NCBI RefSeq assembly: GCF_004010195.1
Contig: NC_057758.1
Coordinates: 3,540,269 to 3,604,268 of the forward strand
Length of the DNA stretch: 64,000 bases
Direction of reading: 5' to 3'
Source: Chiloscyllium plagiosum
Taxonomy: Eukaryota
In this document: piece after piece, positions 13,935 to 63,460 of the stretch
Layout of the letters: the number at the start of each line of letters is the position of its first letter
Position numbering within the stretch: position 1 is the first letter of the stretch
Position numbers and translations under genes: made by a program
Notes under the pieces: model-generated
Told to the model about the DNA's origin: nothing
The model's input: the letters and a program-made list of their open reading frames with translations, nothing else
Databases searched by the model: none

Positions 13935-15315
13935 TCTCACCCAAAGCCAACTCTGTTCTGCGAGCAATGCCCGGTCACACTACCCCCTCTAATCCTCTGG
14001 GAATGGACCTTTGGCCTACCACATAATTAGTCCAATATCAATGGCCTCCTACTCCACCCCATCTCACTTGACATAGCAACAGTCAGTTGTCCCACAAACA
14101 TTGTTCCCCCAGCAACGGTCTGTAACCCTACCCCTCTACTCCCACAGCAGCATAATAGTCACATACAAAATCTGTTCCCTCAGACTTGGCCTGTGTAGCA
14201 TCTGTACTCTGTTCCTTATCAATGATCAATGGTTCCACTCCCTTACTTTCCCCAAGGAAACGTCAGTAGTCCACCCGAAACGGTTCTCAGGCTATATACC
14301 TACAGACCCTTCCGATTCTGCTTAACGAGCAACAGACTGTGGCCTATTCTCAACCATTTACCAAGCAGAGGCTTGCAGCACGACAGCCTGTACAGTCGGC
14401 TCTCATTCCACCCACACTTCCTCCTTCAGAAAGGATCGTGGCAATGCACACACACTGTTCCAAAGCAAAGCCATTTGAAACCACCTGACCCACCTTTCTC
14501 ATAGCATCAGTGTGTGACCCCGCAAACACAGTGTTCCCCTGGACACCGAAGGAGGCTTAAACGACTACTGTTTCGCCTAACAAACACCCTCTCTGTTCCC
14601 TGAGCAAAGGCTTGCTGCAATGTTACCACGCTGCTCCCCCAGCAACTGACTGCATTCTCACACTCACTCTCGTCCCCTAGCAACGGACTGTGGACCTACC
14701 CAAAACCTGTTCTGGAAACATCAGTCAGTGATTCTGCATCTAATCTTCTCATGGCAAAGACTGCTGGATCCATCACCTTTCTATTCCTCTTGTGGTCATA
14801 TACCCATTTCGATTGCCGAAGAACTAGCAATTGTTGCATCGCTACTCTGATCCCACGTGAACACCCAACGTCATCAGCTCCCTCTGTTATCCTTTCCAAT
14901 GCTTATGCTCTCACTACCTTGCTTTCCTGTCAGCAGTGGCCTGAGAATCTGTACCTAATCTGTTCCATTAACAAAGGCCTGTGACCCATTCCTCATTCTA
15001 TTCACCCAGCAATCGTCTGTCCACCTTTCCCCAACCCTTTCTACAAGCAATAGCCTTTGTGCACATAGCCACTCTGCCCCCCAGCAAAGGACAGTGGTCG
15101 AACACCAATTATTTTCCCCTGGCAACGGAATGTGGGCCCATCCCACATTCTTCCAAAGACAACATCCGTCAGCCCCATCACCACACTGTTTCTCTGACAA
15201 GGGTTCATGATCCTACACCTGCTTTTCTTTCCCTAATGATTGGCTGCTGGACCACCACTGCACTGTTGCATTAACAACCGGCTTTGTCCACTTCCACATA
15301 ATTTTCTCCAGCAAC
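13935..15315 (-). repeat. Cryptic ~38-bp period array of X-box-like cores, copy A
   Basis: Reverse complement of 59003-60790, lacking a 400-bp block. Confidence 0.8.
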
Positions 15316-15936
15316 AGAAGCTAAGAGGGAGTTGGAGGTGGACAGAATTTGAAAGAGAGAGAATGGAGGAGGTACAGGGAGAGCAAGACGAAGAGACAGT
15401 GAAGGAGAATGGGGGAGGGAGATACAGTGAAAAGCAATTACAAAATAGGAGGTGCAGAGAGTACAAATGAGAGAAATTGTGAGAATGGGAGAAAGAGATG
15501 AATGGAGAGGAACAGAGAGAAAGTTGAATTCTGCTGAGGCCAGGACGGGGTGATCAACACAGAAGTGAAAGCAAGGACAGAATGATTAAACAGAATTATT
15601 GTGTCCCATCCGGTTCCATCCCCTTCTCGGATGACAAGGACATGGGTAAAAATCTCCAGCTTAGTTTCTTCAAAGCAAAGACAAACTCTTCTGCTTGACA
15701 CTTTTTAATGATCTTTTTAATCAGTTACGAGTTGAAGTTATGGATACAGTCAGGTGAGAGCAGTGCCTTGTCAGGCTGGCCCCTGAGTTGAGAGAAACGC
15801 TGAGATATACCCCTGTAATCACTTGTCAGAGGATAAGGATGGACAAACCAGTACTGTCCTCATTCTATTACCATATTGACAAGCTGCTTAACTGCTGAAA
15901 CATTGAATTGAAATATGAAAATCCTGAATTGATTGA

Positions 15937-16844
15937 TTAATGAGTGAATTGGATTGATTTATGAATTTGGATAAAGGGATACTTCAGCACATTCTTCAAC
16001 TGCTGTCTGAACTTTTTCTGGGTCACAGCATATATCGCTGTGTTTGTGCAGCAACTGAGGAGCTGCAGCATGAAGCCTAATTCCTTCACAAATGGATAGA
16101 CATACACAGACCTATACCCGAAATACCACATCCGGTTCCATATAGAATACACCATTAGCATTGACCATAACAAGATGAAATTGCCCGAGATCACAAACAG
16201 CAAAATTATGGATCTTTATCGATTTTGCATTTCTGTGTCACACTGACCGTCCCCATTTGTGTGAGCACGCAGTCTCTTGCGGGCTCTGCTGGTCACTAAA
16301 ATGTGTCTAACGGTGAAAATATTGAGAAGTACAATCAGGAGAAATGGAAGAGCCGGGTTTAGGACGTGATGGAGGAACTCGATTGAAGTCCAGACACGAG
16401 AGGATTGAACACTGCTTATTACGTGACAAAACCAGGGGATGTTACTCATATTATATGTCCCTGCCAGCATGAAATACCAGAAAATGTTCTTTAAGCAGCT
16501 CAGCACAGTCACTGTTCCAAGAACCAAAGCCGCCGTTTGCTCACTGCAGTATTTACCTTTCAGGTTCTGGCAACAAATGGCTACAAACCGATCAAAGGTG
16601 AAAGTGACTGTGAATCAGACAGAACAGTCAGTTGCTGCATAAAACAGGACGGCGTGGATATTACACACTTGGATGTTCCACAGGAAAATAAACACTTCCC
16701 AATAAACAAAGGGAATGTGTCTCAATATCAGATCGAGGATAATTACCAGTAGATCCGCCACTGCCATGGCCCCCAGGTAACGACTGACACAGGGAGACAA
16801 TCCACAATCTTTATGATGCAGTATGAAGATTGTCGCTCTGGTAA
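15937..16844 (-). pseudogene. GPR139/GPR142-like class A GPCR exon 2, pseudogene (copy A)
   Basis: TM motifs MAVADL, DRFVAICC, NTAIY. In-frame stops at 16615-16617 and 16216-16218. Acceptor AG changed to GG at 16845-16846. Confidence 0.9.
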
Positions 16845-17899
16845 CCGTAAGGAAGGTAAACAAAGAAAATATGCATCATCTTGGAGGTAAAATTGTCAGT
16901 TTTATTGTGGACAGGGCCAGATTTCAAATGGCTCACTGTATTTAAAGATCTATTGAAATTACTGGAGCTGTAATAACACAGCGCAATGTCTGAATTACTT
17001 TAGAAATGTGACGTAAATACAAGAATTCCTCCTTTCCCAAACATGGAAACGAACATTCATAAGAACATTCATAAAGTTTCTAAGACACTGTCACACACTC
17101 GATCACTTGTAAGTAAACAAAGGTTATTTCTTTACATTTCCTGACAGGAAAAGTGAAAATCATTCTTAATGGTTCTGAACGGTTCAACCAGTTCCTTACA
17201 GACAAACGGAAGTTGGAAATTCCTGTCTTTCAGTCTAAGTTGTGGTGGTCATTCTGTCCTGAAGAAACGCAAACACAAACAAAAAAGTTCACTCCTTTAA
17301 CTGCCTGAATGTACTTCGAAACAATGTGTCCTCCTCCCTGCAACGTGATGTCTTTCTTGAGAATCATGTCTTTTGGTCAATTCACTGACTTTTGGCCAGT
17401 GACTAATACCATCAGTTGAAGAACGCTCCATAGATTGCTCCACTCCTTTTTCTGTCCAACTGTTCTTCTCTCTCTTTGGGATTTCTCCCCAATTATCGTT
17501 TACGTTTGACCCCTTGGTTCTGGAAAAATAAATGACATTTTCCGCCGATAATCAGTTCACAAGTCAGGGCACCAGACTGCATGGCTACTTCATAGAGCGT
17601 CTAAATTCGACCCGCAAAAGTGAACCAGAGGTTCCAGCTGTCTTACACATGCACACACGAACCTATTCGCTGTCCATGATCTTTCACAGGCTTAGTCCAG
17701 TGCTTCAGCGAAGCTCACCATCATTTGGAAAAGAAATACCTCATATTCTGAGAAGAGACTTTGCAACACTCTGGACTCAATATCGAGTTCAATTTCACAA
17801 ATAAGACTAATTGAAAGACAGGTGTCAGAGGGGTCCACTTGACTCGGGGCGGAGCTGAATGCGAGAGAGCAGAGAGCAATCTAGAAAGATATGTGAAAT

Positions 17900-19400: not shown

Positions 19401-19666
19401 TTAGATTAGATTAGATTAGATTAGATTCTCTACAGCGTGGAAACATGCCCTTCGTCCCAACAAGTCCACACTGACCACACCCCCCCCCCCCCCCTCCAAG
19501 AGTCACCCACCTAGACCCATTTCCCTCTGACTGAAGCAACTAACACTATGGACAATTTAGCATGGCCAATTGACCTGACCTGCACATCTTTGGACTGTGG
19601 GAGAAAACCGGAGCTGGAATCGAACCTGGGATCCTCGTGCTTTGAGACAGCAGTGATAATCACTGA
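19401..19666 (-). mobile_element. HE1-type SINE with internal deletion (paralog of 54444-54770)
   Basis: (TTAGA)n tail and SINE body; about 65 bp missing at ~19613 relative to copy B. Confidence 0.85.
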
Positions 19667-27060: not shown

Positions 27061-27804
27061 TGCTGTGTTGTTCCTTGTTCTTGGAGAAAAGTGGCGAGAC
27101 AGACAGAAGTACAAAGTAGGATGATGGTGATGGAAAGAGAGAAATGGTGCAACAGAGCAAAGATGAAAAGAAAGGGAAAAAGATATAATAGAGACAAATG
27201 GCTGGAGGAAAGCTGTAAGTGGAGAGTGCGGAAATTTGTACCTCCGAGGAACTCGTGAGGACGTTCACGAGTGAGTGAGTATGAAGGAGAAAGGAGGAAG
27301 AAAGAATGGAAGAAACAGCAGAATTGGGACGACGTTGCATACGGAGAAGAGAGAGATAGGAAGAAAGAGAGGTTTAGAGCGTGTGTAGAGCAATGGGAAG
27401 CAGGGCAAGATGAAGAGAGAGTTGTAACTTCAGAAGTGAAATTAGGAGCTGGACTACTTGAACTCACCTCCTGAACTCGTTCACGGTCCCATCACTTTCC
27501 CTGAAGACCAGGCGTTGGGCCTGAGTTGGTCTTTATTTGGTTCAGCCGTTTGAATGAAAAGGCAAAACCACCAGTAAGCTCTGCCGCTCGGCAGTTTTTA
27601 CTGAGCATGTTTATTACTAACAAATTGAAGTTGGAGACAGGGGAAGTGAACTAGTGCTTTGTCCTCCTGGTCCCGAAGTTGACATAACCTGTGTGGGAAG
27701 ATTGGAAAACCAGAACTACACACAGAATTTGACCATAGTGACAGGCTGTTTCATTGTTGCAAACTTGATTTGAAATTGGAAAATTCTGGATTTATTGAGT
27801 AGTT

Positions 27805-28285
27805 AGTCACTTTTGATTGATTGATATATTTGGGGATAATTTAGGACAATCTTCAGCTGCTGCCTGAACGTAGCCTGAGTCACAGCATATATTGCAGTTT
27901 CTGTTCAGCAGCTGAAGACCTGCAGCATGAAGTGCAAATCCTGCACAATGTAAAGTAGGTACATCGATTGACAACTTTAGCCAAGCATCCGGTATCATAC
28001 AAAATTCAGTGTAATATTGACAATGACAGGTTAAACTTGTCCAAGATCACAAACAGTAAAATGAAGTTTTTTTTCTTGAAATTACATTTCAGTTTCTTTC
28101 TGACTCTCGCCGTTGCTATGGGACCAGAGTCTCCTAAGGGATTTGCTGCTCATTAAAATGTCTCTGATGTTTAAAAAATGGAACAATGTGAAGCGTAATA
28201 ATGAGAAATGCAGCATTTGGGTTTGAATTTGGTACAGAATATTAATTGTTACCTGAGAGAAATTCACACCGACTGTTCCATCGCA
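27805..28285 (-). pseudogene. GPR139-like GPCR fragment (TM5-TM7), old pseudogene (copy D)
   Basis: Reverse complement reads FMLQVFSC*TETAIYAVTQATFRQQLKIVLNYP, homologous to copy A. The 3' flank also resembles 15330-15930. Confidence 0.8.
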
Positions 28286-29352
28286 AATTAAGACAGTTTG
28301 TGAAATTGAATGAACTCATTTCTGAAATCCAGGTCTTTGACATCTAACACGATAACACTCTCCCATATACCATTCTTTCAGAGTCTTTCCAGTCATTTAC
28401 CCAGTCACGACTGATGCACTTTTAAGCAAATCTGATTGAGCCAACTTCTCAATCGACCATACTGCACATGATACTCAATGTCTGCAAACGAAGCCAATTG
28501 CAAAACAGAACCGCACAGGAAAGGAGTTCTAGTTTTCTATGTGAGCCACGAGCGCGCTGACAAGGGAGAATTAAAATTGAAACTACACAGATCACACACG
28601 AGCGATATTTCTACTGACATCTCGTTAAATTTGAATATTATCACGGTTAACGTTTTTGCAAATGTCAGCATATTCTTGGTGCCATTTCTTCTAAATGATT
28701 TACATAAATAATCTCAATGCAGATGAAGTTAACTTAGAAACTATGAAAACTGCAACAACCTGAATAAAATGGTATTTATTAGAATCTTGCTGCCCAAGGA
28801 TGGATACTTCACTGTTTCTCTGATTCATCTCTTCGCAAATGTTGCCAGACATGTCGATTTTCTCCAGTATTTCCTTTATTTATAATGTAACCAAGTATAC
28901 TGCTGTACAAATTAGGAATAGTGAGAGAGGCCAATTTGAATGAATACATTACCGCAATTGTAAAAAATGTGCGAGGCCGAACACGTGAGGTGGAACATCG
29001 ATGGAACGTGACTGTTTTCTCCACACGACATTCGTTGTCTGAAAAGAGTCCTGCCAGATTTCACATCGACGAGCTCTCTCCCATAACGTGCCCACACCAT
29101 AGAATATTCAGATCCCGTTGCTGACAGAATTGTCAATACCTGTGAACATTCTGTAACGCCAGTTCCGATTAAAATTAATCTTGATTGATTATTTCAAATG
29201 GACGTCTTCCATTTCAGTGGATGAAATTGAATTCTTTGTATTTAATATGGATGCTTAAATTCATAAACATCAGGTTATATTAGGTCTATGACTGCAACAT
29301 GTGCTGTATTTAATGGACTAGGTTGTCTTTACTCAACAACAATAATAGGTGT

Positions 29353-29980: not shown

Positions 29981-30840
29981 TCATTTTTTCAGCTCTACTC
30001 TGAATTTGCTCTGTGTCGCTGCATAAATACAAGGCTTCAGAAAGCAACTGAAAAGCTTCAAGATATCTCCCACTTCAATGGCGATAAATTCAGGGTTGGT
30101 GAACTTGACTCGATAATTAACCATGTTTGTTAATTTGGTAACACCTAAAGTCACGGCATTTGTCAACCAGAGCAAGAGAAAACTTACTGATATTGAGAAT
30201 AATAAAATGATGGACTTTCTGCGGTTCTCCAATTCTGAGTCACTATGATTCCCACTCTTGGAGCTCCGCAGTACAGTGCGGGTTCTATTTGCCAGTACAA
30301 TGCGTTGGACAGTTAATGTATTACATAAGGTAATCAAAGTGAATGGAATCCAAGTGACACAGGCGCTGTAAAACCAGACATAACCTATACCTGCAGAAGA
30401 GGAAAAAAATGCTGCACTTGACTGACAGCCCCACTGCATGTTGGTAATAATTTTCTTAGGTTCATAAGCAAAAAAAAACGGAATTTCCTTCAATACGATC
30501 ACAACTGTGATGAATATTACGAGAGCGATTGCAATCCTTTCGGTGCAATATTTTTTTTGAAAGTTTTGGCAACAAACCACAACAAATCGATCAAGTGTGA
30601 ATGAAACAAGGCACCAAACAGATACATCGGGTGTGACAGCGGTCAAATATATAATGACTCTGTAAACATGAGTATGCGACAGAAATGACAAAGGGAAGTG
30701 ATAACTACAGATGTGATAGAATACGACATTGTTGATCAGGACTAATAGGTCTGTTGTTGCTATGGCCATCATGTAAACAGTGATACATTTAGAAAGACCA
30801 CATTTCCTTTGTGAAAGAATCCAAATTGTGGCCAAGTTCG
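29981..30840 (-). CDS. GPR139/GPR142-like GPCR exon 2 (copy C, divergent paralog, possibly a pseudogene)
   Basis: Acceptor ttttcctgtcttatag then (A)NLATIWIL; CGLSKCIT.YM, LDRFVVVCC, RRKSIILLF, KPCIY. ORF is continuous. Confidence 0.85.
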
Positions 30841-31697
30841 CTATAAGACAGGAAAAAAAAACAATGCATAATGCATCAGTGCCTGATTCAAATGAAACAT
30901 GATCATGTCAGTCTATGTTATGTACTTAACAATATACAAGAAATATTTTGTCACCTAGCACAGGGATCATTCTCTGAGGGATAACAAGGCAGTCCAAGTA
31001 TACATGGAATCATTAAGGAGCCTTAATATCATGCCATAAAGATGAAGCAAAACCAGTGACTAAAATGCAAGGTAGACAAACCAGTTCTCCAAGTTAGTTA
31101 TTCTGCAATGGTGGCACGAAAAAATTTGTTCACTTGATGAATTATGCGAATTAGCTAGAAGAGTGATGATAGGGATAAATACAGATAGATTACAATGACC
31201 TACAAAGTCCTCTAGTGGAGCAATGGCAGTAGTTGTTACTCTGGAGTGAGAAACACTGAATCAAGTCCCCCCACTCGCCGCTTCAGACGTTTCAAAATCA
31301 TCTTCGAAAAAGTTCATCAGGAAAAAATTGTTTAAAAATGGAATCCACTCACCCGGAATGGCTACAGATGCAAGTAGCGGGTAATAAATTTCTTTCACGA
31401 GCAGAATTGCAGGCTTCTCCATTTTTGATGACAGTTAATGATATCTGCAGAAGCTGGAACACTTTGAATACCCACTGCAGAATCAGTAGAAGGGATTCTG
31501 TATTTATGCATACATTAATTCCTCGGGGAATCAATCAGTTACAGTAATCACACGCATTTAATAAAGAGAATCAGGGAAGATTGTTTTTGCTGAAACATGA
31601 GATTGAAAGAAACAAGAACTGCAAAGTGGAGAAAATTCTACTATATACCTACTGAAGTAACATCAGGAGTACTTCTCGTGTAACCTGTGGATAATGT

Positions 31698-35270: not shown

Positions 35271-36939
35271 CAAAGAGCTGAGGCTCCCTGGAGTACTCTG
35301 TGACGATACTCTCATTTTAACAAGGTAATTTTGTCCTTGGTTCTTTTTGTAAATGAGACATCGTACACACAGAGGTACTGAAGAGTCGAGGAAGAGCCCA
35401 GCCTAGCCATGGCAGGGGAGTTCAGGTTGATTTTAGTATGGTTTAGCTGGATTGGACATGATCTACTGGATTCCAGGATAAGTTGCAGTGTCCAGGAAAT
35501 GTTTCATGTCTAATGTTCTCTATGAAACATATTTGAACGTTGTTCCTTCCTGCGTGCAAAAAATTGTTTTAGAATTTACTTTTTTTGCCAATAGGTGTGC
35601 TTCTGGGATGAGAATTGGATTGGAACAGTTCATTGGTTATGACTTTGTCGGGTCAGCTAAGATTTGAAAAAGCTAAAGTTTTTTCTAAATTCCGTTTTCT
35701 TTTGGTTGTGTCTCAACTGTAGCGCTTAAATAGATTCCGTCTTGAGTTATGCCGAGTCGTTTGAGTAGCTGCACCACACCTGGAATATGCACTTCACATC
35801 TGCCAATAAAATGCAAAAACATTAGCGTCGAGGTAACTTTTGTAACATATTTTTGCGGGTGTCTGGCCTGGTCCATAAAGCTCTTTCTTTTCTCCCAAAT
35901 CGACTCTACAGTCTTGTTGCACATTCGTATGCAATTTTAGAATGTTTAACTCGTGCCTGTTTACTCTTTCAGTCCTGATCTTCCCTTTTTCCAGGCAAAG
36001 TTTTACCTTGACTTAAGTCAAAGTTGTTTTCTCTATTCACTACTTTCAATGCCGTGCCCCCTACACGAAGGCACTGAAACGCAGAACATGCTATTGTTTC
36101 TTTGAACAACTACTTGGTAGACATGACCATTTTACCCGCTATTGCAACGCACCACCGTATTTTCCGGTGATCATTCCTGTCTCAGGCTTGCTGCAGTGAA
36201 ACTCAGCGCAATATGGAAAATCAGTACATCTTTTTTTGATTGGGAATATTGCAGCTTAATATCGCACTCACTAACTTTTCTGATCGAACATCTTCCCCAA
36301 CGATTTTCGCCAACCTCACACACGAGGCCTCGTCGCCCCATGGCCTGCTACCATAAAATAGCCATTTTCAGCCATTAGTAGGCCACATTGTGCTGATGCT
36401 GTCGCTGTAATTGTTTCCTTTGTCATAGCGTCTTTTCACAGAGGGGGTGAAAGATTTTCACACCTGGCCACTGAAGAGCACTTGAAGACACAGTCTGTGA
36501 AGCTTTGAGCTTATTTTTAAAATTTGGAACAATGTAGCAACTTTTTCAGTGTAGATTTAGTCGGACGCTGTTGGGCTTTTAAAACATTTACAAACTTTAG
36601 TGAATGTCTCTTAGCTGCTTCGTTGACTACGTTTTCATGTGTTTTTTTGTCCATCCTGGAATGGATTGTTGCATTTTACATTCTGTGGCTGAAATTTCCT
36701 TTATTTGCCAAGGGATGCGTTCACAGAATGGTTATATCTTGGAAGAATTTTAAATGAAACGTTATTTATGCATGGACTACCGAAGAAAGCATGAACAAAA
36801 GAGAACACCCCTACTTCCCACCCGATTGACTCTATCACAAAATAATGACGCTGTTCGAAAAAAAACTTGCAAATCCCCATAAACACCGATTTGGCAAAAA
36901 AAAGCGGTAAAATAAAACACAGGTTTTACCAAATAGATG

Positions 36940-37483
36940 TATAAGACTCTGGTGCGGCCGCATCTGGAATATTGTGTGCAGTTTTGGTCGCCATACTATA
37001 GGAAGGATGTGGAGGCACTGGAACGGGTGCAGAGGAGGTTTACCAGGATGTTGCCTGGTATGGAAGGAAGATCGTATGAGGAAAGACTGAGACACTTGGG
37101 GCTGTTTTCATTAGAGAAAAGAAGGTTTAGGGGTGACTTGATTGAGGTGTACAAGATGATTAGGGGGTTAGATAGGGTTGACAGTGTGAACCTTTTCCCG
37201 CGTATGGAGTCGGGTATTACAAGGGGGCATAGTTTTAAATTAAGTGGGGGTAGATATAGGACTGAAGTTAGGGGTAGGTTCTTCACTCAGCGAGTCGTAA
37301 GTTCATGGAATGCCCTGCCAGTAGCAGTGGTGGACTCTCCCTCTTTATGGGCATTTAAGCGGGCATTGGATAGGTATATGGAGGATAGTGGGTTAGTATA
37401 GGTTAGGTGGGCTTGGATCGGCGCAACATCGAGGGCCAAAGGGCCTGTACTGCGCTGTATTCTTCTATGTTCTATGTTCTATG
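36940..37483 (+). mobile_element. Young 5'-truncated HER1/CR1 LINE with 6-bp TSD
   Basis: Intact ORF 36937-37401 (YKTLVRPHLEYCVQFWSP), (TTCTATG)n tail, TAGATG at 36934-36939 and 37484-37489. Confidence 0.92.
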
Positions 37484-47040: not shown

Positions 47041-47330
47041 AGAGGTGCGAGGCAGGAGCGAACGACTTCTGGGAAGGTGAGTTTAATGGTTTGAAAACTT
47101 TATTTCAGGCGTCGAGGCCTCCATTTGCCGAGAGGTGCGAGGGAGGAGCTAAGTATTCTGGGAAGGTGAGTCTAACGGTTTAAAACTCTTAGTTCAGGCG
47201 TCGGTGCCTCCATTTGCCGAGAGGTGCGAAGGGCCTCTGAGATGGTGAGTCTAACGGTTTAAAAACCTTACTTCAGGCGTCGGGGCTCCATTTGCCAAGA
47301 GGTGTGAGGAAGGAGTGAAGGACTTCTGGG
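47041..47330 (+). repeat. ~90-bp tandem repeats in CR1 5' UTR
   Basis: AGAGGTGCGA...GGTGAGT.TAA.GGTTT...TTCAGGCGTCG...CTCCATTTGCC, about 3.3 copies. Confidence 0.85.
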
Positions 47331-47339
47331 TAGTTTTTA

Positions 47340-49375
47340 AGTGGGTGGGAAATGGAGCTGGAGCTGGATGATCGACGGATCATCCGGGAGACAGAGGGGG
47401 AAACTGAGAGGATGTACAGGGAGGTGGTCACTCCCCAGACACCGGATAAGGACAGCTGGGTTACAGTCAGGGGGAGGAAAGGGAACCGACGGTCAGAGCA
47501 GGGATCTCCTGTGGCCGTTCCTCTCAGCAATAAGTATACCGTTTTGGATAATGCTGGTGGGGACAGCCTACCAGGGGAAAGCCATAGTTTTCAGGTCTCT
47601 GACACTGAGCCTGGCATTGTGGCTAAGAAGGGAAGGGGGGATAGAAAAGCGCTAGTGGTAGGGCGACTCAATAGTTAGGTAAAAACAATGACTGCAGATG
47701 CTGGACACCAGAGTATAGATTGGAATGGTGCTGGAAAAGCACAGCAGTTCAGGCAGCATCCGAGGAGCAGTAAAATCGATGTTTCGGGCAAAAGCCCTTC
47801 ATCAAGAGTACAGCAACAATAGTTAGACAGATTTACACGCGATTTTGTGGTCAGGAACGGGACTCAGGGAAGTTATGCTGTCTCCCTAGTGCTAGGGTCC
47901 AGGATTTACAAGATTCTGAAAGGGGAGGGTGAGCAACCAGAAATCTTGGTACATGTTGGCACCAATGATATAGCCAGGAAAGAGATTGAGGATGTGAATA
48001 GTGACAACAGAGAATTAGATTGGAAGCTGAAGAGCAGGACCAGTCGAGTAGTGATCTCAGGTTTGCTACTGGTGCCACGAGATAGTGTGATAAGGAATAG
48101 TCAGCGAATGCAGCTTAACACGTGTCCGCGACGCTGGTGCAAGTGAGAGGACTTCATACAACTAGACCGTTGGTATACCTTCTGGGGAACGTGGGACCTG
48201 TAAATGAAGGACGGGTTGCACCTGAACTGGAGGGCCACAAATGTCCTGGTTGGGAGATTTGTTCGCGTGATTCTGGAGGGATTAAACTAGTTTAGCGGGG
48301 GTGGAGGTGGGGAATCAGAGCCACGTGTCTGAGAGGGGTCAGTTCCACGCAAGGTGGAGGAAGCAAGGATCTAGTACAGTTTTAGAGGATTACAGGCTTG
48401 CTGGAAATGAGCTCAGATATGGACTGAGGAGAGCCAGGAGAGGACACGAAAAAGGCTTGGCAAGAAGGATTAGGGAGAACCAAGAGACATTTTACACATA
48501 CGTGAGGAATAAGAGAATGATCAGGGATAAGATAGGGCTGATCAGTGATAGCGGAGCGAACTTGTGCGTGGAATCTGAGCAGATAAGCCCTAAATTAGTT
48601 TTTTGCTTCGGTTTTCACCGAGGAAAGTAAACCTGTTGTAAATCAAAAGACTTAGAGGAGCTGGGATACAATCTTGTCCAGATCAAGATTGATGAACTTG
48701 ATGTGCTAGAAATTTTGGAAGATATTATGATTGATAAGTCCCCAGGGCCAAACCAGATTTATCCTAGGCTGCTCCGGGAAGCGGGAAACAAGGTTTCTAT
48801 GCATCTGGCGAGGATATTTTTCTCCTCCCTCTCCACAAGAGTCGTACTGGATGATTGGAAGGAGGCGAATGTTGTTCCTCTTTTCAAAAAGGGTAATAGG
48901 GAAATCCATGGCAATTACAGACCAGTCGGTCTTACGTCTGTGATCAGCAAAGGTTTGGAAAGAATTCTGAGGGATAGGATTTATGACTATTTGGCAAAGC
49001 ATAGAGTGATTAAAGGCAGTCCACATGGCTTTGTGAGAGGCAGGTCATGCCTCACAATCTTATAGAGTTCTTTGAGGAGGTGTCAAGACAGGTCGATGAC
49101 AGTTGGGCTGTGGATGTGGTGTATCTGGACTTCTGCAAGGCATTTGATAAGGTTCCCCATGGGAGGCTCATTCATAACGTCAGGCAGTATGGCATACAGG
49201 GAGATTTGGCTGTTGGATTCAGCATCGGCTGGCTGACAGAAGGCAGAGAGTGGTTGTGGACGGCATGTATTCTGCCTATAGGTCAGTATTGAGTAGGGTC
49301 GCGCAGGGCTCTGTTCTTGGACTCTGTTCTTTGTAGATTTTATAAAAGATGTGGATGAGGAGTTTGAGGGGTGGG
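47340..49375 (+). mobile_element. CR1 LINE ORF1 and internally deleted ORF2
   Basis: LSNKYTVLD, VHVGTND, KSPGPNQIYPRLL, NYRPVGLTS and YLDFCKAFDKVPH. Confidence 0.88.
47679..47816 (-). mobile_element. Penelope family A pLTR fragment, 10-bp TSD
   Basis: CAATAGTTAG at 47669-47678 and 47817-47826; mutated hammerhead at ~47777-47805. Confidence 0.85.
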
Positions 49376-52244: not shown

Positions 52245-53296
52245 ACTCATAGAGATGCGCAGCAGCGAAACAGCTACTTTGGTATGACTCATCCAAGTCG
52301 ACTAGACATTATGCATTAATCTAGTCCCATTTGCCAGCATGTGGACCATATCACTCTAAACACTTAGTATTCATCTACTCATCCAGATGTCTTTTGAATA
52401 TTGCACTTGTACCAGCCTCCTGCACTTGCTCTGGCAGCTCATGTTGTACAGGCACCATCCTCTGCCTGAAACATTTGATTTTACATTCTTCTCGCATCTT
52501 TCCCTTCTCACCTTAAACCTATGCCTTCTAGTTTTGGGCTCGCCCACTCTTGAAAAAGAACATTGACTATCAGGTGTATCCATGCCTTAGCTTATTTCAT
52601 GTTTTTACTCAGCCTCCGATGCTCCAGGGAAAGCAGCCCCAACATATTCAGCCGGTCTCTACAGCACAAATTCTCGAACACTGGGAACATGCTTGTGAAT
52701 CTTATTGGCGCCATTTCATGTTTCACGCCATTTTTCCAATAGTAGGGAGATGAGAAATAAATGCTGTAATCCAAAAGTGGTCTAACTAATGCCTTTCATG
52801 GCCACGACATGATTTCCCTACTCCAAGACTCAGTGCAGTGACCAAAAAAGGCCAATCGTAAAGAACACCTTCTTCACTATCCTGTCTGCCTATGCTACTG
52901 ATTTCAAGGATTAGAGAATCTAATCTAATCTAATCTAATCTAACGTTGCAATGTGCCCATGCATGGCACGTCATGTTGGTGAATACCCACAGCCCTAAAA
53001 GTAGCCATAGCTTCTTCATTCAGAAGCAGTCAGCCATTATCAATGGTTTCTGAACTTGTACTCCAAGGACTCTTGGTTCGGCAAAACTCTCTTGATTCTG
53101 TACATAAGTCAAGCCTTGATTTGCCAGACCAAAATACAGCAACTTACATTTATCAAAGTTAATCTGAATCTGGTACTCCTTGGCCCAACGACCCATTTAC
53201 TTAAGGCCTCAACGGACTCGGAGATAACATTCATCGTTGCCCATTAAACCATCAATTATGGTGTCATTTGCAAACTCACTTACGATCGGCTTCCTA
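52245..53296 (-). mobile_element. CR1 ORF2 3' part
   Basis: KTRRHRFKVR and RLNMLGLLSLEHRRL in minus-strand ORFs. Confidence 0.8.
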
Positions 53297-53726
53297 TAAT
53301 ATCATTTATTGTGCATCCACTAATATCATTTATTGTATCCGTTGCTCCCGATGCGGTCTCCTCTACATTGGGGAGACTGGGCGCCTCCTAGCAGAGCGCT
53401 TTATGGAACATCTGCGAGACACCCGCACCAATCAACCACACCGCCCCGTGGCCCAACATTTCAACTCCCCCTCCCACTCTGCCGAGGACATGGAGGTCCT
53501 GGGCCTCCTTCACCGCCGCTCCCTCACCACCAGACGCCTGGAGGAAGAACGACTCATCTTCCACCTCGGAACACTTCAACCCCAGGGCCTCAACGTGGAA
53601 TTCAGCAGCTTCCTCATTTCCCCTTCCCCCACCTCATCCTAGTTTCAACCTTCCAGCTCAGCACTGCCCCCATGACTTGTCCGGACTTGTCCGACCTGCC
53701 TAGCTCCTTTTCCACCTATCCACTCC
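53297..53726 (+). mobile_element. Penelope family A GIY-YIG fragment, absent from copy A
   Basis: NIIYCIRCSRCGLLYIGETGRLLAERFMEH...PVAQHFN. Confidence 0.9.
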
Positions 53727-54443
53727 AAAATCACAAAAAATGAACATTACACCAATTATTCTGGCGCACCATTGGTCACAAGCATCCATTCCAAAACGTA
53801 TGCCTTCACCACACTCTCTGACTACTATCTTCAATCCAATTTTGTATTCAAATATCTTTTTAGCGCTGTATTCCATGCAATGTCACTGTACTTAACAGTC
53901 TACCATGACAAACCCTGTTGAACGCCCTACTGAAATCTGAAAATGCAATGACCACAGGTGTGTGCATGTGTGTGTGTGTGCGTGCGTGCGTGTGTTTTGG
54001 AGTGTGGGTGAGATAGGGAAGTAATTTGATGCATCCATCCCAGGATTTATAAGAACACGTCCCCAACCTAAGCTTAACCCAGCAGCAGTGTGTGGGGGAA
54101 CCCTAATTTAATAAGGAGCTGGTCACAGAGCGATGTCACCTCCTGCAACACGACTTGCAGCTTCACACCAGGGAGAGGATAGTGCTAGAGTCACAGTTTC
54201 ATTCAGTTTCGAATATCCGGAAATGGCCTGGAACGTATGGGTAACATATCAATCATCTCCCATGATGCTTACATCAATGTTGGAGGATATATATTGCGGA
54301 TTAGGTTAATGCAATGCGCACTCTCTCAGCAGGGAACAACCCAGTGTATGCTTGTTTTCCCAGTATAGCGGTACTCACGATCATATACATGGACCTATGT
54401 GGTCCACATGTCATCGCGGAGAAGTAGAGGGACTGAAGAATCT

Positions 54444-54770
54444 CTCGGTGATTATCACTGCTGTCTCACAGCGCCAGGATTCCAGGTTCGATTCCAGCCT
54501 TGGGCGACTATCTGTGTGGAGTTTGCGCATGCTCCCGATGTCTGCATGGGTTTTCAGAGGGTGCTCCGGTTTGCTCCCACAGTCAAAAGATGTGCAGGCC
54601 AGGTTAATTGGCCATGCTAAATTGTCCATAGTGTTAGATGCATCAGTCAGAGGGAAATGGGTCAAGGTGGGTGACTCTTGGGTGGGGGTGTGTGGGGAGG
54701 TCAGTGTGGACTTGTTGGGACGAAGGACCTGTTTCCACGCTGTAGAGAATCTAATCTAATCTAATGTAAT
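54444..54770 (+). mobile_element. HE1-type SINE
   Basis: GGTTCGATTCC B box and (AATCT)n tail. Confidence 0.85.
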
Positions 54771-57360
54771 ATAATAGAATCTAATGTTGAAATGTGCCCA
54801 TACATGGCACGTCGTGTTGGTGAATAAACACAGTCCGAAAAACAGCCAGAGCCTCTTCATTTAGAAACAGTCAGCCATTCCCAACGGCTTCATGTCTTCA
54901 CGTGCAAGGAAAAAAATGGCCTTTCAGATTGACGTCATATCCTTAATACGGGGCTTGAAACACCCCCCTGCTCATCACTTGCCACTGAGAGAAATGGGAC
55001 AACTGAGAACATGACAGAGCAGTCCATCAGATTTAGCAAAACCTCCGAAGTTTGAACGGGTAAGAGTGAATCTTCCAGTTCACACTGTATCACGAATGCT
55101 GCTATCTCTCTCCCTTTTACTCACATACTGCCTCACCTTCGCCCTGAAACTATAATGAATGGGATATGTCATGTTATATTCGATCTTCCAACCTTTAACC
55201 CGCTGTTTTCCCCTCCAAGTATTCATTTGGACACCTTGCACCTTATCTGAATGATACAATTGTCTGTTTACCTTAACGTCATCGCCTAACATAGTTACAG
55301 TGTATTTATGCGAAATCATCGATACGGATTCCAAACAGCTGAACACCCAATACTGCTTACTGTGTGACTTGACATGATATGTTCTGTCAAACTGATCAAG
55401 GATGATTTATTTCGAGTTTCTGATTGCTGTTTGGTACCTATTCCTACCGCATTCTCATGTCACACATTCAGCTTCTTATCGACATCCATGACTTGAATGA
55501 GAATGTACAAGGCATGATTCGCAAGTTGCTGATGAAACTAAAGTAGATGATACCATCGAAAGTTCGGAAGGTTATCAGAAATTACAGCAGGATCTTGACC
55601 AGCCGGGGAAGTCGGCCGAGTAATGCAAAATGGAGTTTCGTGTAGATAAGTGTGAGGTGTTGTGTTTTGGCACCTCAAATAAGGGTAGGAATTTTATGGT
55701 CAATGTTCGGACCTGAAGGAGTGTTCCAGAATAGTGGGACCATGGAGTTCAGGTTCACAGTTCTCTTAAAGTGGAGTCACAGATCGGTAGGGCAGTGAGG
55801 ACGGCCTTTGGCAGACTGACCTTCATCGATCAGGGCACTGAGTACAGAAATTGCACAATTATGTTAGAGCTAAAAAATGACGTTAATGAGGCCGAACTCG
55901 GAGTATAAGTGTTCAGGTTGGGTCACCTTGCTGTCGAAAGGATGTCATTAAACTGGAAAGAGTGCAGAAGAAATTTGCAATAATGTTGCCAGGACTCAAC
56001 ACTCTCATTTGTAGCGAGAGTTTGGATAATATCGGACATTTTTCCATATTTTGTTGGAGACTGTGTGAGATCCTCATAGAAGTGTATAAGGTCATGAGGG
56101 GCATGGATAGACTGAATGCACTCATCATTTTTCACAGCATTGGGAACCGAGGGTGAGCGTGCATAAGTTTAAGGTTAGAGTGGAAAGAGTAAAATGGAAA
56201 CTGAGGCGCAATTGTTTTGCAACGAGTGTGCTACGCATATGGAATGAACACAATTCCACGAGGTAAAATTTTATTTCACATACCTTTCTAGATTACTCTC
56301 TGCTCTCTCGCATTCAGCTCCGCCCCGAGTCAAGTGGACCCCTCTGACACCTGTCTTTAAATTAGTCTTATTTGTGAACTTGAACTTGATATTGAGTCCA
56401 GAGTGTTGCAAATTGTCTCAGCAGAATATGAGGTGTTTCTTTTCCAAATGATGGTGAGCTTCGCTGAAGCACTGGACTAAGCCTGAGAAAAATGATGGAC
56501 AGGGAATAGGTTCGTGTGTGCAAGTGTAAGACAGCTGGAAGCTCTGGTTCACTTTTGCGGGTAGAATTTAGAGGCTCTATGAAGTAGCCATGCAGTCTGG
56601 TGCCCTGACTTGTGAACTGATTATCGGCGGAAAATGTCATTTCTTTTTCCAGAACTGATCATCGGATGAAATGACAGTTTTCTTTCCAGAACCAAGGGGT
56701 TAAAAGTAAACGATAATTGGGGAGAAATCCCAAAGAGAGAGAAGAACAGTTAGACAGAAAAAGGAGTGGAACAATCTATGGAGCGTTCTTCAACTGATGG
56801 TATTAGTCACTGGCCAAAAGTCAGTGAATTGACCAAAAGACATGATTCTCAAGAAAGACATCACGTTGCAGGGAGAAGGACACATTGTTTCGAAGTACAT
56901 TCAGGCAGTTAAAGGAGTGAACGTTTTTGTTTGTGTTTACGTTTCTTCAGGACAGAATGGCCACCACAACTTAGACTGAAAGACAGGAATTTCCAACCTC
57001 CGTTTGTCTGGAAGGAAACGGTTGTACCGTTCAGAACTGTTAAGAACAATTTTCACTTTTCCTGTCAGGAAATGTAAAGAAATAACCTTTGTTTACTTGC
57101 AAGTGATAGAGTGTGTGACAGTATCTTAGAAACTATATGTTCTTATGAATGTTCAGCTCCGTGTTTGGGAATGGAGGAATTCTTGTATTTACGTCACATC
57201 TCTAAAGTAATTCAGACATTGCGCTGTGTTATTACAGCTCCAATAATTTCAATAGATCTCTAAATACAGTGAGCCATTTGAAATCTGATTCTGTCCGCAA
57301 TAAAACTGACAACTTTACCTCCAGGATGATGCATAATTTCTTTGTTTACCTTCCTTACAG

Positions 57361-58268
57361 TTACCAGAGTGACAATCTTCATCCTGCTTCATAAAGATTG
57401 TGGATTGTCTCCCTGTGTCAGTCGTTACCTGGGGGCCATGGCAGTGGCGGATCTACTGGTCATTATCCTCGATCTGATATTGAGACACATTCCCATTGTT
57501 TATTGGGAAGAGTTTACTTTCCTGTTGTACATCAAAGTGTGTAATATCCACGCCGTACTACTTTATGCAGAAACTGACTGTTCTGTCTGTTTCGCAGTCA
57601 CTTTCATCTTTGATCGGTTTGTAGACATTTGTTGCCAGAACCTGAAAAGTAAATACTGCAGTGAGAAAACGGCGGCTGTGGTTCTTGGAGCAGTGACTGT
57701 GCTGAGCTGCTTAAACAACATTTTCTGGTATTTCATGCTGTTAGGGCTGTATAGTCTGGATAACATCCTCTGGTTTTGTCACACAACAAGCAGTGTTCAA
57801 TCCTCTCGTGTCTGGACTGCAATCGAGTTCCTCCATCACGTCCTAAACCCGGCTCTTCCATTTCTCCTGATTGTACTACTCAATATTTTCACCATCAGAC
57901 ACATTTTAGTGACCAGCAGAACCCGCAAGAGACTGCGTGCTCACACAAATAGGGACGGTCAGTGTGATACAGAAATGCGAAATCGACAAAGATCCATAAT
58001 TTTGCTGTTTGTGATCTCGGACAATTTCATCTTGTTATGGTCAATGCTGATGGTATATTCTATATGGAACCGGATGTTGTATTTAGGGTATAGGTCTGTG
58101 TATGTCTATCCATTTGTGCAGGAATTAGGCTTCATGCTGCAGCTCCTCAGTTGCTGCACAAACACAGCGATATTTGCTGTGACCCAGAAAAATTTCAGAC
58201 GGCAGTTGAAGAATGTTCTGAAGTATCCCTTTATACAAATTCAAAAATCAATCCTATTCACTCATTAA
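57361..58268 (+). CDS. GPR139/GPR142-like GPCR exon 2 (copy B); ORF intact, exon 1 not found
   Basis: Acceptor ccttccttacag, phase 1. Hydrophobic TM segments, FDRFVDICC, SIILLFVIS, LQLLSCCTNTAIF. Confidence 0.88.
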
Positions 58269-58332
58269 TCAATCAATTCAGGATTTTCATATTTCAATTC
58301 AATGTTTCAGCAGTTAAGCAGCTTGTCAATAT

Positions 58333-58453
58333 CCTCGACCTGATATTGAGACACATTCCCATTGTTTATTGGGAAGAGTTTACTTTCCTGTTGTACATCC
58401 AAGTGTGTAATATCCACGCCGTACTACTTTATGCAGAAACTGACTGTTCTGTC
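58333..58453 (+). repeat. 121-bp copy of GPCR B coding sequence (57467-57587) in its own 3' flank
   Basis: Two mismatches to the source; absent from copy A. Confidence 0.92.
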
Positions 58454-59002
58454 TGAGGACGGTACTGGTTTGTCCATCCTTATCCTCTGACAGGTGATTA
58501 CAGGGGTATATCTCAGTGTTTCTCTCAACTCAGGAGCCAGCCAGGCAAGGCACTGCTCTCACCTGACTGTATCCATAACTTCCAACTCGTAACTGATTAA
58601 AACGTTCATTAAAAAGTGTCAAGCAGTAGAGTTTGTCTTTGCTTTGAAGAAGCTGAGCTGGAGATTCTAACCCATGTCCCTGTCATCCGAGAAGGGGATG
58701 GAACCGGATGGGACACAAGAATTCTGTTGAAGTCATTCTGTCCTTGTTTTCACCTCTGTGTTAAACACCCCGTCCTGGCCTCAGCAGAATTCAACTTTCT
58801 CTCTGTTCCCCTCCATTCATATCTTTCTCCCATTCTCACAATTTCTCTCATTTGTACTCACTGCACCTCCTATTTTGTAATTGCTGTTCACTGAATCTCC
58901 CTCCCCCATTCTCATTCACTGTCTCTTCGTCTTGCTCTCCCTGTGCCTCCTCCATTCTCTCTCTTTCAAATCCTGTACACCTCCAACTCCCTCTTAGCTT
59001 CT

Positions 59003-60790
59003 GTTGCTGGAGAAACAGGGTGCGTTTACGTTTGCAATCTGTTGTTTGGGGAACAGAACGGGACGCACATATAGAGTGTGGGGTTTCATCAAAATGCAAT
59101 TTCTCGTGGACTCTGTATGTGAGACCAATGGATGTTACTCGGGCAAAGGGTGACCGTCGGACAATATTCCTGTGAATGCAACACATTGTGTGCAACTACT
59201 GTTTGTTGCTGTGGAAACAGAATGGTTATGAGTTCACAGCCAGTTTCTACTGGGTTAGAGTGAACATGTTGTCAGAGGCGGTTGCTCGGAGAATAAAGCA
59301 GGGACGTGCTCAAATTAGAGATGCAATTGTTATGGGAAAAGTATATACGTGGAACAACTTGGCTTTCGTAGGTGTTCACTGGGATGGTTTTGACAATGTT
59401 TTATTCCGAGGGAAAATTATGTGGAAGTGGACAAAGCCTGTTGTTAATGCAACAGTGCAGTGGTGGTCCAACAGCCAGTTATTCGGGCAAGAAAAGCAGG
59501 TGTAAGATCATGAACCCTTGTCAGAGAAACAGTGTGGTGGTGGGGCTGACGGATGTTGTCTTTGGAAGAATGTGGGATGGGCCCACATTCCGTTGCCAGG
59601 GGAAAATAATTGGTGTTCGACCACTGTCCTTTGCTGGGGGGCAGAGTGGCTGTGTGCACAAAGGCCGTTGCTTGGAGAAAGGGTTGGGGAAAGGTGGACA
59701 GACGATTGCTGGGTGAATAGAATGAGGAATGGGTCACAAGCCTTTGTCATTGGAACAGATTAGGTACAGATTATCAGGCCATTGCTGACAGGAAAGCAAG
59801 GTTGTGAGAGCATAAGCATTGCAAAGGATAACAGAGGGAGCTGATGACGTTGGATGTTCATGTGGGATCAGAGTAGCGGTGCAACAATTGCTAGTTGCTC
59901 GTCAATCGAAATGGATATATGACCACAAAAGGAATAGAAAGGTGATGGATCCAGCAGTCTTTGCTAAGAGAGAATATTAGATGCAGAATCACTGACTGGT
60001 GTTTCAAGAACAGGTTGTGGTTAGGTCCACAGTCCGTTGCTAGGGGAAGAGAGTGAGCGTGAGAATGCAGTCTGTTGCTGGGGGAGCAGCGTGGAAACAT
60101 TGCAGCAAGCCTTTGCTCAGGGAACAGAGAGGGTGTTTGGCTGGAAACCATTGTTAAGCGAAACAGTCGTCGTTTAAGCCTCCTTCTGTGTCCAGGGGAA
60201 CACTGTGTTTGCGGGGTCACACACTGATGCTATGAGAAAGGTGGATCAGGTGATTTCAAAGGCTTTGCTTTGGAATAGTGTGGGTGCATTGCGACAATCC
60301 TTTCTGAAGGAGGAAGTGTGGGTGGAATCAGAGCCGACTTTACAGGCTGTGGTGCTGCAGGCCTCTGCTTGGGTAAAGGTTGAGAATAGGCCACAGTCTG
60401 TTTCTCGTTAAGCAGAATCGGAAGGATCTGCAGGTATATAGCCTGAGAACCGAGTCGGGTTGGACTGCTGACCTTTCCTTGGGGAAAGTAAGGGAGTGGA
60501 ACCATTGATCATTGATAAAGAACAGAGTACAGATGCTACACAGGCCAATTCTGAGGGAACAGATTTTGTATGTGACTATTATGCTGCTGTGGGAACAGAG
60601 GGGTAGGATTACAGACCGTTGCTCGGGGAACAATGTGTGTGGGACAACTGACTGTTGCTATGGCAAGTGAGATTAGATGGAGTAGGAGGCCATTGATATT
60701 GGACGAATTATGTGGTAGGCCAAAGATCCATTCCCAGAGGATTAGAGGGGATAGTGTGACCGGGCTCGCAGAACAGAGTAGGCTTTGGGT
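59003..60790 (+). repeat. Cryptic ~38-bp period array with RFX X-box-like cores, copy B
   Basis: Cores at 59440, 59478, 59517, 59555, 59592, 59630, 59667, 59705, 59743, 59781, 59818, 59856 and 59960, 59998, 60036, 60074, 60112, 60150, 60188, 60226, 60264. Confidence 0.85.
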
Positions 60791-61199
60791 GAGATAACTC
60801 CACAGAGATCATCATTCCCAGATAGTTGGGAAAAAAAAGAACCTGACTCAATGCTGCCCTTTGGTGAGAAATTCTACCATCCTCACCTGATATCCACACA
60901 TGTACACAGATTCAAAGCGTTGTTCCTTCATTTTAGCCTTGATATGTTTCAGATCATTGTTAGATATTTGTATGATGATTCTAGCCTTACATCCAAAAAC
61001 AGCAAGAAACTTTTATATCTATCCCAGTGCTTTGTATTATTGCCACAAAACTTCAATTCTATCCCACCCTTAAATAATGCAACCGTGGGTTTGTGTCATT
61101 TTACTGCCTTGCCATTGAATATTTGCTGTCCATCCACCATTCTCGTTTACCAACATTGAACTGACTTGAGCAAGGACTCCCAAGTCCACATTCTTTCTT

Positions 61200-61715: not shown

Positions 61716-62424
61716 GATATCAGTGTTGTGCTAGCATGAACTGGCTGCTGTGACCAAACTTTAAATAGTTGACTGACACCTTCTAATTACTCGTCCTGGT
61801 TTGCAGATTAAAACGTACCTTACTTTTTGTATGTCTCTCAGCCTCCTACAGATGAATCTCAGCGAGATGTGAGCTGGTTCTTGTTTTAGAATTAGAAGGG
61901 ACAATATAAACTCAATATTAAAGATTTAAACTGGGTGAAGGAACAGATAATCCTTCAGTTTGGTTGTGGAAATCTGACAGCACACGTGAGAGACAAATGT
62001 GACAAACGTGTTTTCATTCAGAAATCCCTGCCTTGCAAAGATATCAGTCTGAAATGGAGAAGCAGGATATGTAGAACTCTGTTAGAAATAATGTGCAAGT
62101 TTCGATTGACGAAGATAAAAATTCCTGAATATGTTTGAACTTACTGCTCTGAGAGAATTAGACGTTTCAGTAGATCCTGCTTACTTCTCAAGCTTCAAAC
62201 GGACAGAGCGACATACATGTACAAAACGTGACATTTCAGGTCATCCACTGAATAATAGGTGTGGAACCTTGTTCAGGATCTGTCTCAGAATTTACCTCGT
62301 CTCTGCCTTGTTTTATGCAGAAAACATAATTTTATAAAAAAAAACGCATTTGCTTCAAATGTTCTGCATTTAAAAGGAAGCAGAATTACCAATAAACGAA
62401 TGCCTGGAGCTTTTGGTACAATTT

Positions 62425-63460
62425 AGGGAGTGGACGTGAGAGTGAGGGATCTAATGTGACTGTAAGCGAGCGGCTATAACTGTGGGAGTGAGTGAGACAT
62501 TGAGGGATTGAGTATGACTGTAAGGAACTGAGCTAGAGAGTACGATATTCAGTGCGAAATGGAGGGAGTGACTGAGACTGAAGGAGTGAGTGATACTGTG
62601 AGAGGGTGAGTGAGAATGACGGAGTGACTGTGAAATTGAGCGAGGATGTCTGACAGTAGAGGAGGCAGAGTGACGGAGTGAGTAAGACTGTGTGGGATTC
62701 AGCATGGAATGTTGGAATCAGTGAGACTGTGTGAGTGAATAAGGCTGTGAGTGAGTGCAACACTGAAGGAGCCAGTTTGACAGTGGGGGTTGAGAGCAAC
62801 AGTGGAGGAGTGAGTGCGACAGTGTGGAAGTGGCGACACTGTGAGGGAATGAGAGTGGGAGCGACGTAATCAGGGTGACAGCGAGAAAATCATTATGACA
62901 GTGAGGAAACAGTGGAATTGTGAGGGAGTTAGACTGTGTCAGAATCAGTGAGATTGAGGAGGAAGTGACATTGAGGGAGTCAGTTTGTCTGCGAGGGAGT
63001 CAGTGCATCTGCAATAATGTCGGTGTGCCTGTGAGAGTGTCAGTGCTTTTCCGAGGAGTCGGTGTTCCTGTGAGGGAATCAGTGTGACTGTGAGGGAGTC
63101 AGTGTGATTGTGAGGAATTCAGTGTAACATAACTGAGAGATTCAATGTCACTGAGAGGGACTCGGTGCGATTTTGGTGCAGTCAGTGAATCAACGATAAT
63201 TTCTGAATGATTGTGAGGGAGCTGTACTCTCTACGAGGTAGTCATTATGTCTGTGAAAGTACCGGTGTGTCTGTGCGCAATTCAGTTTGTCTCTGAACAA
63301 GTAAGAAAGGCACATCGAGAACAAAGTGTGAGAGAGAAAGTGTGAGGGGGAGTGCGTGAGTGAGTGCGAGGGACAGAGTGTGAGACAGAGAGCATGTGAC
63401 TGTGTGACAAAGTTTGAGGGATAATGTGTGTGGGAGATGCTGCTTTAGTGTCTGCGTGTG
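62425..63460 (+). repeat. Degenerate ~20-bp minisatellite (GTGTGACTGTGAGGGAGTCA-like)
   Basis: Clearest units at ~62980-63125. Confidence 0.75.

Follow-up and report, generated by a model that had tools for sequence, protein, structure and literature searches.

In the shark Chiloscyllium plagiosum, a GPR139-like receptor gene is followed by about 1.8 kb of DNA in which a short palindromic core recurs at nearly constant steps. The question raised by this locus is whether the array serves, or once served, as a cluster of protein-binding sites, or whether it is a tandem repeat that has simply decayed. A first-pass annotation had read it as RFX X-box-like cores every ~38 bp between dissimilar spacers, and had proposed an old minisatellite that might act as a homotypic RFX enhancer or locus-control element. 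We analyzed the array within the window, that is, the whole stretch of 64,000 nucleotides of contig NC_057758.1, together with contigs of other organisms, and the coordinates of the features are collected in Table 1. Neither the array nor an expansion of GPR139-like receptors in sharks was found described in the literature covered, which included few subscription papers.

Table 1. Features of the receptor locus, with positions counted from the first letter of the window.
Feature	Position	Strand	Evidence and remarks
Array copy 1	58995..60790	+	48 decayed 38-bp units; autocorrelation and tandem profile
Array copy 2	13940..15325 (about)	-	~36 units, 94.5% identical to copy 1; profile scan
Inverted segmental duplication	53192..61147	+	Partner at 13583-20452 on the minus strand; ~93% identical over most of its length
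GPR139-like rhodopsin-family GPCR, copy 1	57342..58268	+	Open frame; lacks the N-terminus and first helix of its relatives
Sister GPCR, copy 2	15937..16863	-	Two in-frame stops
Third GPCR paralog, older	27275..28315	-	Heavily broken; homologous 3' flank (68.5%) and pyrimidine tract; no array
Fourth GPCR	29981..30835	-	Open frame; 32-37% amino acid identity to the sister pair; no array
3' flank common to many family members	58460..58790	+	ATTAAA at 58596 and 58608
Pyrimidine-rich tract directly 5' of array copy 1	58790..58998	+	Sequence; ends in AG
Decayed 20-bp G-rich minisatellite (control)	62421..63290		~43 units, 72% identity to consensus; 1.6 kb from the array

The periodicity of array copy 1 was confirmed by two approaches. 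In the autocorrelation of 58990-60800, identity was highest at lag 38 (0.351; z 9.6 relative to 200 dinucleotide shuffles), and the harmonics 76, 114, 152, and 189 stood out as well. A circular tandem profile arrived at the same 38-mer from 11 of 11 different start stretches. Unit lengths fell within 35-39 bp in 41 of 47 cases, including 24 gap-free 38-mers, in agreement with the spacing and the few irregular steps noted in the first-pass annotation, and the six cores quoted there as examples all lie where it had placed them. The array begins ~730 bp past the GPCR stop at 58268, close to the ~750 bp first estimated, and holds 48 core-like sites, most of them degraded. The units are G-rich on the + strand and share 62% identity with the consensus and 47% with each other, and the unit nearest the consensus (60028-60065) matches it at 32 of 38 positions. 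Tandem Repeats Finder, run at score 30, does not report this array.

Each unit carries at columns 9-22 a core with the consensus GTTGCT-AG-GGGAAC, a 14-bp imperfect palindrome whose TT and AA are 10 bp apart. A majority base was present in all 38 columns of the unit (at 0.38-0.98), indicating head-to-tail units from one consensus. The spacers had at first been described as largely unrelated, which does not hold, since the spacer columns keep the consensus base in 38-85% of units, with a mean of ~0.59 against ~0.69 for the 14 core columns. Pairwise identity between units was flat at 0.46-0.48 over distances of 1-15 units, and neither clear subfamilies nor shared variants were detected among the units (column permutation p 0.053 for the sd and 0.24 for the maximum, range to 0.33). 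Signs of homogenisation, such as neighbouring units that are more alike or subfamilies, were not seen in copy 1, and the history of the units is star-like, from a single 38-bp ancestor. Because the whole unit descends from one consensus, the array is one old minisatellite and not a repeat-spacer array.

A second, inverted copy of the array, which the first-pass annotation had missed, is present in the window within a segmental duplication of ~8 kb that carries LINE and SINE-like remnants, the GPCR, its 3' flank, and the array. Loss of whole units was seen once, in copy 2, where 400 bp (corresponding to 59012-59411 of copy 1) were removed in register from core to core, so that 10 units went in one event. 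Some further repeats were found in and around the duplication. At 58322-58455, in the 3' flank of copy 1 only, 134 bp of the GPCR coding sequence are repeated (from 57456-57589, 97% identical), a 37-bp tandem duplication at 56614-56692 is likewise confined to copy 1, and an 89-bp unit occurs in 3.3 copies at 47041-47330. A GIY-YIG match at 53268-53642 (E 1e-4) marks a retrotransposon remnant, and a weak reverse transcriptase match at 48703-49065 stayed below the Pfam cut-off. The retrotransposon remnants at 4874-6615 and 36937-37401 gave no Pfam match; we take the retrotransposon remnants to be of the Penelope and CR1 types.

The duplication provides a comparison of recent change in cores and spacers. 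Between the two array copies, 33 of 502 core sites and 43 of 874 spacer sites were substituted (Fisher p 0.22), and the array as a whole (76 of 1379) changed much as the LINE did (101 of 1668). Among the well-kept core columns, 14 of 235 sites had changed, where 13.5 were expected under neutrality and 6 under the old constraint (P 0.003). The well-kept spacer columns had changed at 2 of 138 sites only (P 0.013), and their continued slowness points to intrinsically slow sites rather than to released selection. Both array copies and the gene now change at the neutral rate, and nothing at the locus suggests present function. The proposal of a working enhancer or locus-control element at this place is not borne out, since the cores have changed neutrally from the duplication onward and the adjacent gene pair also drifts.

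The older history of the array left a different record in the columns of the unit. T at column 11 was kept in 44 of 45 units and A at column 20 in 42 of 45 (0.93 each in a second alignment), and the two centre columns and several spacer columns stood at 0.38-0.50. The retention at column 11 has a probability of 0.011 under 0.15 substitutions per site, and the units lie 0.52 from the consensus. The conservation profile was mirror-symmetric about the centre of the palindrome (r 0.89); a second reflection centre reached r 0.86 among the 76 tested. Columns were overdispersed, with a residual sd of 0.118 against a binomial 0.068, compared with 0.087 against 0.067 in the 20-bp control array.

We compared these features with neutral simulations passed through the same aligner as the array, in which mean identity was 0.612-0.630 (observed, 0.622). 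The retention of TT and AA was reached in none of 146 uniform, 144 context-drawn, and 142 gamma alpha 3 runs, and in 2 of 145 runs with alpha 1.5. The symmetry was reached in 1 of 146 uniform runs and in none of the other three sets (0/144, 0/142, and 0/145, in the same order). The gamma alpha 3 model matched the overall spread of the columns in 67 of 142 runs and the excess of the core in 8 of 142. In addition, the context rates, which are trinucleotide rates from the non-array DNA of the duplication and from older repeat pairs of the window, failed to predict the profile (rho -0.11, p 0.52) and predicted a faster core. On this pattern of columns, the core is kept beyond simple random decay, and the array was likely once a cluster of protein-binding sites. 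The column profile and the simulations thus lend support, for the deep history, to the view that an old minisatellite preferentially kept its core.

The identity of the protein that might have bound the core was examined with the published X-box of RFX factors, GTNRCC-N1-3-RGYAAC according to the accessible part of bioRxiv 10.1101/2021.02.03.429678, and with the X-boxes of the DYX1C1 and DCDC2 promoters, which are bound by RFX1/2 as far as the available text of PMC5024701 describes. The consensus core differs from the published X-box by one mismatch and from the DYX1C1 and DCDC2 X-boxes by two each; at 59205, a unit comes within one mismatch of the DCDC2 X-box. The label of X-box-like cores therefore fits the consensus but not the individual units, of which none of the 48 matched exactly, 4 had one mismatch, and 15 had two, with a mean of 3.10 mismatches against 3.13 under uniform decay of the consensus. 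Near X-boxes were enriched over background, with 19 of the 48 units within two mismatches compared with 4% of background tiles, but the mean is that of uniform decay. These 19 units, ten times the background, represent a slight excess over the 12.4 expected from decay (P 0.026). Perfect half-sites were present in 11 of 41 cases (8.3 expected). Of the outer X-box letters, G was kept in 21 of 45 (47%) and C in 24 of 46 (52%) units. With the published pattern and all 48 units, the units did not appear as good X-boxes beyond what they inherit from the consensus. The kept part of the core is the TT..AA frame, which appears as TTGCT in the left half and as GGAA in the right. From these X-box comparisons, RFX is the best named candidate for a putative binder. 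The core may also resemble the X1 box of MHC class II, a likeness given no weight here, and motifs of EBF, C/EBP, ETS, and CTCF, immunoglobulin switch repeats, and nucleosome phasing would be further conceivable explanations of the pattern.

The gene next to the array belongs to a large family of receptors. GPCR copy 1 had 946 matches, the best 120 of which were all from sharks where the organism was named, with the best at ~78% in carpet sharks, and the relatives are named 'probable G-protein coupled receptor 139' or 'neuropeptides capa receptor-like'. At 159 conserved columns, defined as those kept in at least 90% of 21 relatives, copy 1 has 9 private departures. The sister copies share 5 departures, mostly conservative (relatives: 1-23), a further 13 are private changes of one copy or of both, and the pair gives a dN/dS of 1.05. 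Copy 1 is likely a pseudogene, judged on these changes. The 5 shared against 13 private departures, together with the dN/dS, suggest that the receptor stayed intact-like up to roughly the duplication and drifted thereafter.

Exon 1 of the GPCR was not found in the window, and no match lies near either sister copy. A weak exon-1-like match (iE 0.026) occurs at 31354-31401 on the minus strand, ~500 bp upstream of the fourth GPCR, and a 143-bp direct repeat (29353-29495 and 29797-29939) is present in the 3' flank of the same gene. Additionally, many shark GPR139-like proteins (among them P0005, P0042, P0058, and P0077) start with a variable number of 14-residue repeats containing N-x-T sequons, which would make a glycosylated stalk possible.

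The segment between gene and array was characterized from RNA reads and contigs. Ten reads of one single-cell RNA run, of which about 2 in 100 reads were covered, came mostly from the 3' flank of paralogs, with AATAAA in a loose end. None of the ten covered any of 58640-60529, and over 60530-60889 they reached a depth of 1 at most. From these few paralog reads, 58460-58790 is likely a 3' UTR with a polyA region, and the polyA site likely lies some 400 bp before the array. The contig depth at 58550-58730 was very high in three organisms (up to 6649 against ~200 in run X1), and the loose ends there show diverged versions from paralogs; the window copy lacks ~12 bp. We read this segment, on the basis of the contigs, as a 3' UTR or downstream element that the receptor family has conserved.

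The comparison with contigs over 58460-61147, in which all 30 bins were covered in organisms A, B, and C, drew on 4 of 24 listed runs. In the listed pieces, the divergence of array versus flank from the window was 2.4 vs 1.5% in A, 8.2 vs 6.7% in B, and 7.6 vs 9.1% in C. Nine of 29 listed array differences fell in cores, as chance predicts (40 of 367 rows, leaving aside an array row that falls inside an insertion). Between the recent copies and in organisms A-C, no conservation of the motifs beyond that of the spacers was seen, and the window copies adjoin drifting genes. Contig depth over the array was like that of the flanks in A and B. In organism C, depth was ~20-fold higher at 59990-60169, the two most consensus-like bins, which suggests a younger or high-copy relative of the unit there. 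Moreover, in 4 of the 15 joints listed (of 21 in all), the family 3' flank runs into core-like positions of an array in other contigs from A and B. These supporting joints have 21-22 letters on their short side and hint that more distant paralogs may carry array units.

Searches in metagenomes and a phage collection gave no relatives. A two-unit core pattern had 2 matches in metagenomes (L001 and L002); both lie in bacteria-like DNA and are coding repeats of short period, and we discarded them as chance matches. Two exact multi-unit patterns matched nothing in the window itself, so such scans are insensitive. Neither blastn of the array against a phage collection nor a metagenome scan with the GPCR alignment (35 pattern matches, 0 confirmed) identified a relative, and a scan for bacterial promoters, which is irrelevant to shark DNA, found nothing above shuffles.

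Several explanations were weighed against these observations. The array may never have functioned: a unit with a chance X-box-like word would have expanded, homogenisation would have stopped, and the uneven profile would stem from site-rate variation and early turnover beyond our null models. All recent change is neutral, the X-box quality of the units equals that of uniform decay, gamma alpha 3 rates reproduce the column spread, and the G-rich control array is also overdispersed, though less. Simple tandem repeats are, moreover, general in shark chromosomes in the available portion of PMC10620051. This explanation nevertheless leaves the retention of TT and AA and the symmetry almost never reached in four neutral models, and the profile unpredicted by local context rates. 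The early turnover that it invokes would be expected to leave subfamilies, shared variants, or an effect of distance between units, none of which is seen in copy 1, and indels number about half of those expected from the local ratio (32 against ~70, a count that the alignment may understate). We give a history free of function a real chance, though one below even. If the array instead derives from a DNA transposon of the foldback, Academ, or Helitron type, as one of its arms or as an array inside it, the cores would have been selected while the element was mobile, and the array would have inserted, already diverged, behind one receptor gene and been duplicated with it. Old constraint and neutral recent change would then need no host function. 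Under this account, the older paralog could share the 3' flank (JC 0.41 pairwise) and lack the array while units stand 0.52 from their consensus, and the ~20-fold depth in organism C would also fit. Elements built from internal tandem repeats are documented, as described in the accessible parts of PMC4079207 and PMC12001565. Against such an origin, neither a second arm nor terminal inverted repeats, a target-site duplication, or an empty site could be identified in the 64-kb window, and the inversion at copy 2 takes in the gene and the flanks along with the array. Sequence common to the two sides of the array does not exceed 10 bp, and nothing homologous to its right flank follows the older paralog. 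The flank-like depth in A and B argues against a large family at 80% identity or more. An insertion exactly where homology to the older paralog ends was also considered and dropped, as alignment to the array edge was not above shuffles (40 of 500). A transposon origin appears unlikely to us.

The strong form of the first-pass proposal, in which the present copy would still work as a homotypic RFX enhancer or locus-control element, gains from the excess of near X-boxes over background tiles and from the finding that tandem X-boxes can drive expression in worms, at least in the available text of bioRxiv 10.1101/2021.02.03.429678. The pair test, furthermore, cannot separate the two lineages, and one copy could be constrained. 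The equal substitution of cores and spacers, and of array and LINE, speaks against present constraint, as do the loss of 10 units from copy 2 and the drift of the neighbouring gene, and we regard a working enhancer as very improbable. A role of the units as RNA hairpins, or as a repeat within coding or exon sequence, is largely refuted and hardly credible, although one might cite for it the palindromic core and a pyrimidine tract that ends in AG before the array like a splice acceptor. The fold of the five best units was no better than shuffles (z +0.32), and paired positions had no excess complementarity. Rfam gave 0 matches over the window, each of the six frames contained 15-28 stops, and, as a weak indication, the few single-cell reads left most of the array uncovered.

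Taken together, these results lead us to favour, tentatively and at not quite an even chance, the reading that the array is the relic of a binding-site cluster of a receptor subfamily, with RFX as a putative candidate factor. This relic-cluster reading is preferred because the retention of TT and AA and the mirror symmetry were rarely reached in neutral simulations, because local context rates fail to predict the profile, and because columns 11 and 20 allow little free decay, yet the units lie far from the consensus. It is also favoured by the well-kept core columns, which since the duplication have changed at the neutral rate and not at that of the old constraint, and by the parallel history of the gene, with 5 shared departures followed by unconstrained change. 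The flank-array joints, the X-box-like consensus, and the unit at 59205 weigh on the same side. Counted against the relic-cluster reading are the poorly kept outer G and C and the lack of any perfect X-box. The column spread under gamma alpha 3, the second reflection centre, and the slow spacer columns also count against it, as do the equal divergence of array and flank in A-C, the 2 of 4 GPCR copies in the window that lack an array, and the shortness of the joints.

As a mechanism for the relic cluster, one early expansion of a unit with an X-box-like palindrome would have been followed by a period in which a two-fold symmetric DNA-binding protein held the palindromic core in place and the array served a working receptor gene as a clustered regulatory element. 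Long selection would have maintained the TT..AA frame while the rest drifted to ~0.5 substitutions per site. Selection would have ended with the death of the receptor copies, close in time to the duplication, and both array copies would have decayed neutrally from then on. A bolder version, in which a receptor subfamily has an ancient array of ~48 phased palindromic sites past its polyA site, an RFX-type dimeric factor kept only the core and the 38-bp spacing as the units diverged to less than 50% mutual identity, and the array dies with its gene, is decidedly unlikely. If it were true, the array would be a cis-regulatory cassette that duplicates along with its gene. It would reveal which regulator and which cell type (ciliated sensory, germ-line, or immune) belong to a huge family of orphan receptors, and the state of an array could tell live receptor genes from dead ones. 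Any regulatory cassette here would provide a direct handle on the factor and tissue driving the very large GPR139-like family of sharks. It would also provide an example of a tandem repeat worn by long selection to a skeleton of motif and spacing that repeat finders miss. If the array is a neutral minisatellite or a transposon relic, it would be only a well-dated example of repeat decay.

A comparison with known systems places the array more precisely. CRISPR arrays consist of near-identical repeats and unique spacers in prokaryotic hosts with cas genes. The shark array resembles them in its regular ~38 bp period and short palindromic core, but it is vertebrate DNA with spacers from one consensus, cores far from identical, no cas gene among ORFs of at least 120 aa, and no Rfam match, so a CRISPR array is rejected, as the first-pass annotation had also held. 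The Tetris foldback element and the minisatellites of Heli2Xen Helitrons, in the accessible portions of PMC4079207 and PMC12001565, are alike in that such an array could travel as a block and arrive diverged; unlike these elements, the shark array showed neither terminal inverted repeats nor a partner arm, an empty site, or a dispersed family in the 64-kb window and the contigs of A and B. With ordinary G-rich minisatellites of sharks, such as the 20-bp array in the window and those in the available part of PMC10620051, the array shares a G-rich strand, a single consensus, and neutral recent change. It differs from the 20-bp minisatellite in being older (62% against 72% identity to consensus), in its more uneven columns, and in a symmetric peak on the palindrome.

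The RFX X-box itself is matched by the consensus core as a 14-bp imperfect palindrome with one mismatch from the pattern. The known X-boxes are single promoter sites in the accessible texts of PMC5024701 and bioRxiv 10.1101/2021.02.03.429678, whereas the shark locus has 48 worn copies 3' of a gene, none of them perfect. IFNB1-MRE, one of several tandem repeats with homotypic motif clusters that are restricted by MORC3, carries ~45 SPI/PU.1 motifs near the gene it regulates, with binding and enhancer activity shown and copy number still variable. Mammals have retained this cluster of motifs although the size and consensus of the unit vary among them, as the available part of PMC13373173 describes. 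Both systems are tandem repeats near a gene, and the shark array has 48 core-like sites, most of them degraded. The shark array differs in units that are 47% alike, in its X-box-like palindrome, in being known from sequence alone, and in that both copies are neutral now, and it lacks at present the conservation of motifs over spacers that an enhancer of the MRE type would show. IFNB1-MRE is nonetheless the nearest described system, and by this analogy the shark array may once have worked alike.
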